From: Escherichia coli
GTDB lineage: Bacteria; Pseudomonadota; Gammaproteobacteria; Enterobacterales; Enterobacteriaceae
Assembly: GCF_003334255.1 (NCBI RefSeq)
Contig: NZ_QOWU01000152.1
Direction: 5' to 3' (one strand)
DNA: 1,703 nt
Part shown: in pieces, positions 774 through 864 of the stretch
Position numbering within the stretch: position 1 is the first letter of the stretch
Layout: every line of letters begins with the position of its first letter
Program-made: the position numbers and the translations under genes
The notes under the pieces: model-generated
What the model saw: the letters and a program-made list of their open reading frames with translations, nothing else
Database searches by the model: none
What the model was told of the DNA's origin: nothing

Positions 774-838
774 TGTCGCATCCAGGGTGACACAACGTTG
801 TCGCATCCTGGATGCGACAACACGCAACAAGGTGTTGC
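774..838. promoter_or_regulatory. Dyad-symmetry / short-repeat cluster upstream of rep (candidate operator or origin binding sites)
   Basis: GTCGCATCC occurs at 775-783 and 800-808, and its reverse complement GGATGCGAC at 810-818, so 800-818 is a 9+1+9 palindrome. ACAACGTTGT at 792-801 is a perfect 10-bp palindrome. GCAACA (824-829) and TGTTGC (833-838) form an inverted repeat with a 3-nt spacer. Confidence 0.6.
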
Positions 839-864
839 ACAGATGTGTCATGATGGCTTAGATT
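835..864 (+). promoter_or_regulatory. Candidate sigma70 promoter for the rep-like gene
   Basis: TTGCAC (835-840) as -35, an 18-bp spacer, and TAGATT (859-864) as -10. Both are imperfect matches to TTGACA and TATAAT. The -35 overlaps the dyad-symmetry cluster, which would fit autoregulation. Sequence-only prediction. Confidence 0.35.

Follow-up and report, generated by a model that had tools for sequence, protein, structure and literature searches.

A pKL1-type plasmid with a single gene

The window, that is, the whole stretch of DNA analyzed here (1703 nt), represents a 1546-bp circle with a 157-nt overlap, positions 1-157 recurring as 1547-1703. The terminal copy of the overlap differs from the first one at six positions (the equivalents of 78, 82, 100, 112, 142, and 145), all of them T→A. 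The A variants are absent from all full-length matches listed (best, 96.2%), and the differences probably reflect an error in reads or assembly near the end of the contig, or a mixed population. The sole gene, and only sizeable ORF, of the plasmid is repA. The features at and around this gene that matter for the following are:

733-773: AT-rich tract (41 nt), abutting the repeat array
738-750, minus strand: IHF-like box AAACAACAACTTA, matching WATCAANNNNTTR with one mismatch
774-796: unit 1, degenerate palindromic putative RepA site, TGTCGCATCC a GGgTGaCAcAAC
792-801: junction palindrome ACAACGTTGT, formed where unit 1 meets unit 2 with half-sites tail to tail
797-821: unit 2, perfect 12+1+12 palindrome, GTTGTCGCATCC t GGATGCGACAAC
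824-838: third, weaker dyad GCAACA agg TGTTGC, overlapping the putative -35
835-864, plus strand: candidate repA promoter (TTGCAC at 835-840, 18-nt spacer, TAGATT at 859-864)
865-883: degenerate extra copy TGAACCAACGTTAGTGCAT, 3′ of the candidate -10 (repeat family D9)
894-898: ribosome-binding site GAGGG, 5′ of repA
907-1383, plus strand: repA, 158-aa winged-helix protein, putative replication initiator/autorepressor

When PLSDB was searched with megablast, 343 plasmids covered at least 80% of the window, many of them E. coli plasmids of 1546-1552 bp, ∼99% identity, and type Col(MG828). The window circle shares 97% nucleotide identity (over alignment columns) with pKL1 (NC_002145.1, 1549 bp), and the translation of 907-1380 is 100% identical (tblastn) to WP_000469298.1, the accession carried by pKL1 RepA. 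Both the identity of RepA and the similarity over the whole plasmid, at a size of ∼1.55 kb, place the window with pKL1 and Col(MG828); judged from its sequence, it is an E. coli cryptic plasmid of the pKL1 type, replicon type Col(MG828). Within 774-864, only two bases distinguish the two plasmids: the window has G787 and C791, pKL1 has A in either place, and both bases belong to the degenerate arm of unit 1; the repeat region is otherwise identical. Of 5426 complete E. coli genomes, 295 carry the region upstream of repA (715-906), nearly always on plasmids, and the carriers of pKL1-type plasmids include the O104:H4 lineage.

In the remainder of the plasmid, the window and pKL1 diverge strongly in a patch at 453-497, both flanks of which are nearly identical. 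The 65 nt at 617-681 are 94-100% identical to ∼1900 small mobilizable ColE1-like plasmids and presumably match the bom/oriT nic region of ColE1/pBR322, which would account for the typing of this one-gene plasmid as “mobilizable.” An inverted copy of the hairpin arm of this stretch (24 nt, 96%) is located at 428-451; between the two copies lie 201 nt, and the divergent patch falls within this interval. Two records of 1123 and 1312 bp look like deletion variants but are linear and incomplete and, therefore, uninformative on the minimal replicon.

The repeat array and its statistical significance

An earlier note on this DNA had listed two direct copies of GTCGCATCC (775-783 and 800-808), an inverted copy, GGATGCGAC (810-818), forming a 9+1+9 palindrome, a 10-bp palindrome (ACAACGTTGT, 792-801), and an inverted repeat of GCAACA (824-829) and TGTTGC (833-838) overlapping the candidate -35, TTGCAC (835-840). 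Every one of these repeats was found where the note had placed it, but the actual structure is larger; the 9+1+9 palindrome, for instance, is real but had been under-described, its full extent being a perfect 12+1+12. The array is composed of four contiguous 12-nt half-sites of alternating orientation with the core GCGACAAC, which results in two palindromic units of 25 bp in tandem. Unit 1 (774-796) and positions 799-821 of unit 2 form a 23-nt direct repeat (83% identical, period 25), and within unit 2 the core half-site GCGACAAC occurs in an 8+9+8 arrangement. The additional copy TGAACCAACGTTAGTGCAT (865-883) is 74% identical to TGACACAACGTTGTCGCAT (788-806) and possibly constitutes a further weak RepA site, and the dyad at 824-838 would be the operator for autorepression.

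The repeat array is not a product of chance. In 2000 dinucleotide-preserving shuffles of the 1546-bp circle, a perfect arm of at least 12 nt with a loop of at most 4 nt never occurred (0/2000); the longest arm obtained was 11, and a length of 10 was reached in 13/2000. Furthermore, the 7-mers TGCGACA and ATGCGAC, with three occurrences, are restricted on this plasmid to the 170 nt 5′ of rep.

The flanks of the array

On its 5′ side, the array abuts the tract 733-773, the GC content of which is 0.244 (versus 0.515 for the whole plasmid) and which would be the DNA-unwinding region of the origin. The IHF-like box within this tract is the sole site in the window matching the IHF consensus with at most one mismatch, which is not significant by itself. 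A search for DnaA boxes returned sites no better in number or quality than expected by chance.

On the 3′ side, the earlier note had predicted a rep promoter overlapped by the palindromes. A weighted scan placed a promoter candidate just 3′ of the array, at the corresponding position, in all of the 11 plasmids scanned; the candidate is weak, however, and a strict scan for the sigma-70 consensus called no promoter anywhere in the window.

Two further palindromic structures flank the cassette. At its left edge lies a conserved hairpin (681-709; AAGGGCGTTGCG ttgcg CGCAACACCCTT). Just 3′ of the repA stop codon, an imperfect palindrome (1398-1439; 24-nt arms, 75%) is centered on GTTAAC; it contains AACGTT, as does the junction of the Rep units.

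RepA and the pKL1 system

The Pfam family matched by RepA is HTH_36 (E = 3.5e-8); a weak match to the RepL profile PF05732 (E = 0.0043, score 17.0) covers the HTH core only (residues 52-131). Rep_3 is absent among the 26 Pfam domain matches of RepA down to E = 10, and no Rep_1, Rep_2, Rep_trans, or HUH rolling-circle domain was found in it with Pfam. None of the NCBIfam models matches RepA, and a sequence search of the PDB yielded nothing specific. The AlphaFold model (mean pLDDT 66; core, 71-92) predicts one winged helix, in the order helix-helix-strand-helix-recognition helix (88-100), followed by a β-hairpin wing. Foldseek searches with this model returned only generic winged helices of the MarR, ArsR, TubR, and CodY types, with E values of 2e-3 or higher and TM-scores of 0.28-0.40 relative to the whole query and up to 0.60 relative to short targets. 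The earlier note had singled out the 158-aa winged-helix protein as the candidate binder of the repeats; its predicted fold and its identity to pKL1 RepA are both in line with this assignment.

In public records, RepA is named merely “helix-turn-helix domain-containing protein.” A 1488-bp record labeled Corynebacterium renale contains a 100% identical RepA fragment, which makes the host assignment of that record doubtful. N-terminally truncated homologues (residues 44-157, ∼73%) are encoded on E. coli plasmids of 70-105 kb, and large plasmids of Vibrio and Proteus carry shorter pieces (residues 97-157, 80%).

The earlier note did not recognize that the DNA belongs to a known, experimentally studied replicon. 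The pKL1 studies of 1999 and 2003 by Burian reportedly describe hexamers of RepA and RepA-dependent replication in trans; the primary papers are Burian, Stuchlik & Kay (1999, J Mol Biol 294:49) and Burian et al (2003, Biochemistry 42:10282). PMC3832669 places oriV of pKL1 5′ of rep and lists as its components an IHF box, several binding sites for Rep, and a perfect inverted repeat. The latter is given there as 16 bp, the palindrome of the window being measured here as 12+1+12. PMC12361487, citing Burian 1999, describes a “Rep-only mechanism” for small plasmids without iterons and antisense RNAs, in which copy number is controlled by autoregulation of Rep and by excess Rep bound non-productively at origin elements.

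Conservation of the layout and variation of the half-site

With RepA as the query, tblastn found homologues in 576 plasmid records. The protein family comprises 690 clusters at E ≤ 1e-5, and the 120 listed are mostly encoded on contigs of 1-4 kb. For comparison, relatives were used whose Rep is 42-92% identical to that of the window (L005-L013, L016-L020, L022, L023, and L025), L019, L022, L023, and L025 being metagenomic contigs. All but one of them, ten or more relatives, share the same order of elements: the IHF box is followed by the AT-rich tract, two palindromic units in tandem (period 25-27), further half-sites around a promoter-like site, and rep; nine of these are tiny plasmids of 1.2-3 kb. 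Relatives with the array have an equivalent AT-rich stretch at the same place, and a single IHF-like site at the same position, which is a perfect AATCAATAACTTA in L005, L007, L008, L009, and L010. Half-sites in the relatives flank the -10 as well. Only rep and the upstream array region are common to all array-bearing relatives.

On this layout, the sequence of the half-site changes. TGCGACA is found in the window, L013, L016, L017, and L025; TGAGCTA in L005, L006, and L019; GGACAC/TGACAC in L007, L009, and L023; TGAGACA in L008; and TACGAAA and TTTGCATGTGT in L011 and L012. TGCAACA is the main site of L022, and it is also carried by the window's own weak third dyad. In all 11 complete plasmids analyzed, the top 7-mer is restricted to the upstream array region, and it differs by lineage.

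Among the close relatives, the outer core of unit 2, GTTGTCGCAT..ATGCGACA, is invariant in eight, with variable inner positions (CC/t/GG); L017 and L025 have the same core half-site, GCGACAAC, as the window, and the dyad at 824-838 is conserved in L013, L016, and L018. In L013, unit 1 is a perfect palindrome, and units 1 and 2 together form a perfect super-palindrome of 46 bp. In pKL1, unit 1 is partly decayed (GGATGAAACAAC). Since both units are perfect in L013, the unit 1 found in the window and in pKL1 is a decayed copy.

Two Shigella plasmids (L011 and L012, 1.8-1.9 kb) share positions 1-682 (87-97%) and ∼1380-1546 (92-94%) with the window, but 683-1378 is replaced by another cassette, with its own repeats and a Rep that is 42-45% identical. 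Replacement of this segment on a shared backbone indicates that the sites and rep form one exchangeable cassette. The cassette of L011 and L012 also includes an extra small ORF.

The hairpin at the left edge of the cassette (681-709) keeps its pairing, with changed bases, in L005, L013, and L016. It had been considered as an extra Rep site and was rejected: it is constant while the array changes (L005 and L019) and, for this reason, is probably not a Rep site.

One relative, L020, whose Rep homologue (encoded at 1440-1964) is 83% identical, has no repeat array upstream of this gene. L020 is a 2.7-kb plasmid from a gut metagenome that also encodes a Rep_1 rolling-circle protein; the segment with IHF box, array, and promoter is apparently missing, and unrelated palindromes are present 3′ of the gene.

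Function of the array

Taken together, the array (774-840) is very probably the RepA-binding array of a theta replicon of the pKL1 type (Col(MG828)), which serves both as the recognition part of the origin and as the operator of repA. The repeats, their architecture, the lineage-linked half-site, and the cassette were observed here; binding by RepA, the IHF box, the position of oriV, and Rep-only control are taken from the literature cited above. The earlier note had proposed a site at which Rep binds for autoregulation or at the origin. This proposal gains support from the identity of both plasmid and RepA with the pKL1 system, from what PMC3832669 and PMC12361487 state on oriV of pKL1 and on Rep autoregulation, respectively, from the winged-helix model of RepA, and from the relatives, which keep the architecture, in which the half-site follows the Rep lineage, and in which sites and rep are swapped together. 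Evidence to the contrary is that the half-site cannot be cleanly mapped to the recognition helix, that L020 lacks the array, and that the promoter is weak by consensus.

Regarding site-by-site roles, the stoichiometry of binding, and the position of melting, we infer the following sequence of events. RepA, a single winged helix of 158 aa, would bind the strong palindromic units as dimers. IHF would bend the adjoining AT-rich tract (733-773) and, together with RepA, bring about opening of the DNA and initiation of theta replication. As RepA rises, its occupancy would extend to the weaker sites, at the -35 and 3′ of the -10, and RepA would oligomerize. With the weak sites filled and RepA oligomerized, transcription of repA would be turned off and the origin complex would become non-productive, which would set the copy number.

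It is unlikely that the array is an operator only, at which RepA represses its own promoter, with replication starting elsewhere, either 3′ of rep or in the shared backbone. This reading could draw on the half-sites, which in every lineage lie on or beside the candidate -35 and -10, on the GC content, as the 50-nt window of the plasmid with the lowest value is located at 899-948 and not 5′ of the array, and on the presence of another imperfect palindrome 3′ of rep (1398-1439). However, the lineage-specific half-site k-mers are found nowhere else on the 11 complete plasmids analyzed, which leaves a sequence-specific initiator without any other target. The backbone, in turn, is common to plasmids with Reps that are only 42-45% identical and, thus, cannot hold a Rep-specific origin. 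Finally, oriV of pKL1 is placed 5′ of rep, together with Rep sites, in PMC3832669.

That the palindromes act through DNA or RNA structure instead, be it as a cruciform, a rolling-circle dso/sso hairpin, a terminator, or an insulator, is very improbable, despite the fact that single-stranded DNA of 770-845 folds strongly (-23.1 kcal/mol, z = -6.0) and that the 46-bp super-palindrome is possible in L013. The only protein of the plasmid contains no HUH/rolling-circle Rep domain. The hairpin of the array is followed by ACACGCAACAAGG, which contains no T-run, and the strict promoter/terminator scan called no terminator (GC-rich hairpin plus T-run) within 774-864. An Rfam search with the whole window returned nothing at E ≤ 1 apart from a chance match to a miRNA family (E = 0.87). 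Moreover, the dyad symmetry of unit 1 is lost in the window and in pKL1 but its left half-site is kept, which fits a half-site for a protein, not a hairpin. Hardly credible, finally, is a site not for RepA but for a host or accessory system (multimer resolution by Xer, or a partition centromere): TubR, a plasmid segregation protein, is among the weak winged-helix matches from Foldseek and tandem repeats are typical of centromere sites, but the sequence of the array differs among plasmids of one host species and tracks the Rep lineage, which argues against a host factor, and the plasmid has one gene only, and no partition ATPase or GTPase.

Comparison with known replicons

In theta replicons of the iteron type (pSC101, F, R6K, and pPS10), the repeats bound by the initiator, a member of the Rep_3 family, adjoin an origin region that is rich in AT and contains an IHF site; the initiator also represses its own promoter via an inverted-repeat operator that shares the sequence of the repeats. 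The RepA-binding array proposed here resembles this arrangement in that the dyad at 824-838 overlaps the candidate -35 and in that the AT-rich tract and the conserved IHF-like box adjoin the array. In contrast to Rep_3 initiators, which have two winged-helix domains, RepA consists of one winged helix, has 158 aa, and lacks a Rep_3 domain. Also, where iteron replicons have at least three tandem iterons of ∼17-22 bp, the window has two direct units, each of which is palindromic; origin sites and operator-type sites are, thus, not separate classes.

Plasmids of the RepL type (PF05732) are likewise small and have one replication protein, of the HTH kind; the Pfam match of RepA to this profile is weak and below threshold, and the Reps of L011 and L012 (42-45% identical) are named RepL by the pipeline of NCBI. 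Repressors of the MarR/ArsR type share with RepA the fold of the DNA-binding core and palindromic, dimer-type sites over a promoter; they are regulators, however, not replication initiators, and the fold matches to RepA are generic. Rolling-circle plasmids differ from the window, the only protein of which is without a Rep_1, Rep_2, or Rep_trans domain, and so do RNA-primed replicons of the ColE1 type: Rfam detected no RNAI/RNAII, and only the ColE1-type oriT segment (617-681) is shared.

Significance

The array would be the control center of a replicon that ranks among the smallest autonomous ones known. The biology of pKL1 is said to have been worked out about 25 years ago. As this system has already been studied experimentally, and the region for RepA binding, operator, and origin of pKL1-type plasmids has been characterized, the finding is correct but not new. 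The practical gaps concern annotation, the origin and operator being unannotated in every record inspected.

Of all this, only the variation of specificity across the family might merit further study. At least six classes of half-sites are found on one fixed architecture. Within the pairs L005/L006 and L007/L009, the recognition helix and the half-site are both shared. The recognition helix alone was tried as a predictor of the half-site and fails for L017, L025, and L019: the recognition helices of L017 and L025 differ, with the half-site TGCGACA being the same, and L019 combines a helix of the window type with a TGAGCTA array. L019 is a draft contig of 1109 nt from an Acinetobacter baumannii assembly and encodes a hybrid Rep, the N-terminal half of which is of the L005 type, as is the upstream array (TGAGCTA), and the C-terminal half of which, including the recognition helix, is of the window type. 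No complete plasmid encodes this hybrid protein; L019 may, therefore, be an assembly chimera, or else a recombinant.

The mismatch in L019, the helices of L017 and L025, and the fact that the dyad TGCAACA of the window is the main site of L022 point to a determinant outside the recognition helix. It is conceivable, if rather doubtful at present, that the family represents a natural series of re-programmed initiator/site pairs, with specificity determined in part by the variable N-terminal region and not by the recognition helix alone. Such a series seems to be undescribed in the literature searched. Should it exist, the family would lend itself as a compact model of the evolution of replicon specificity and incompatibility.
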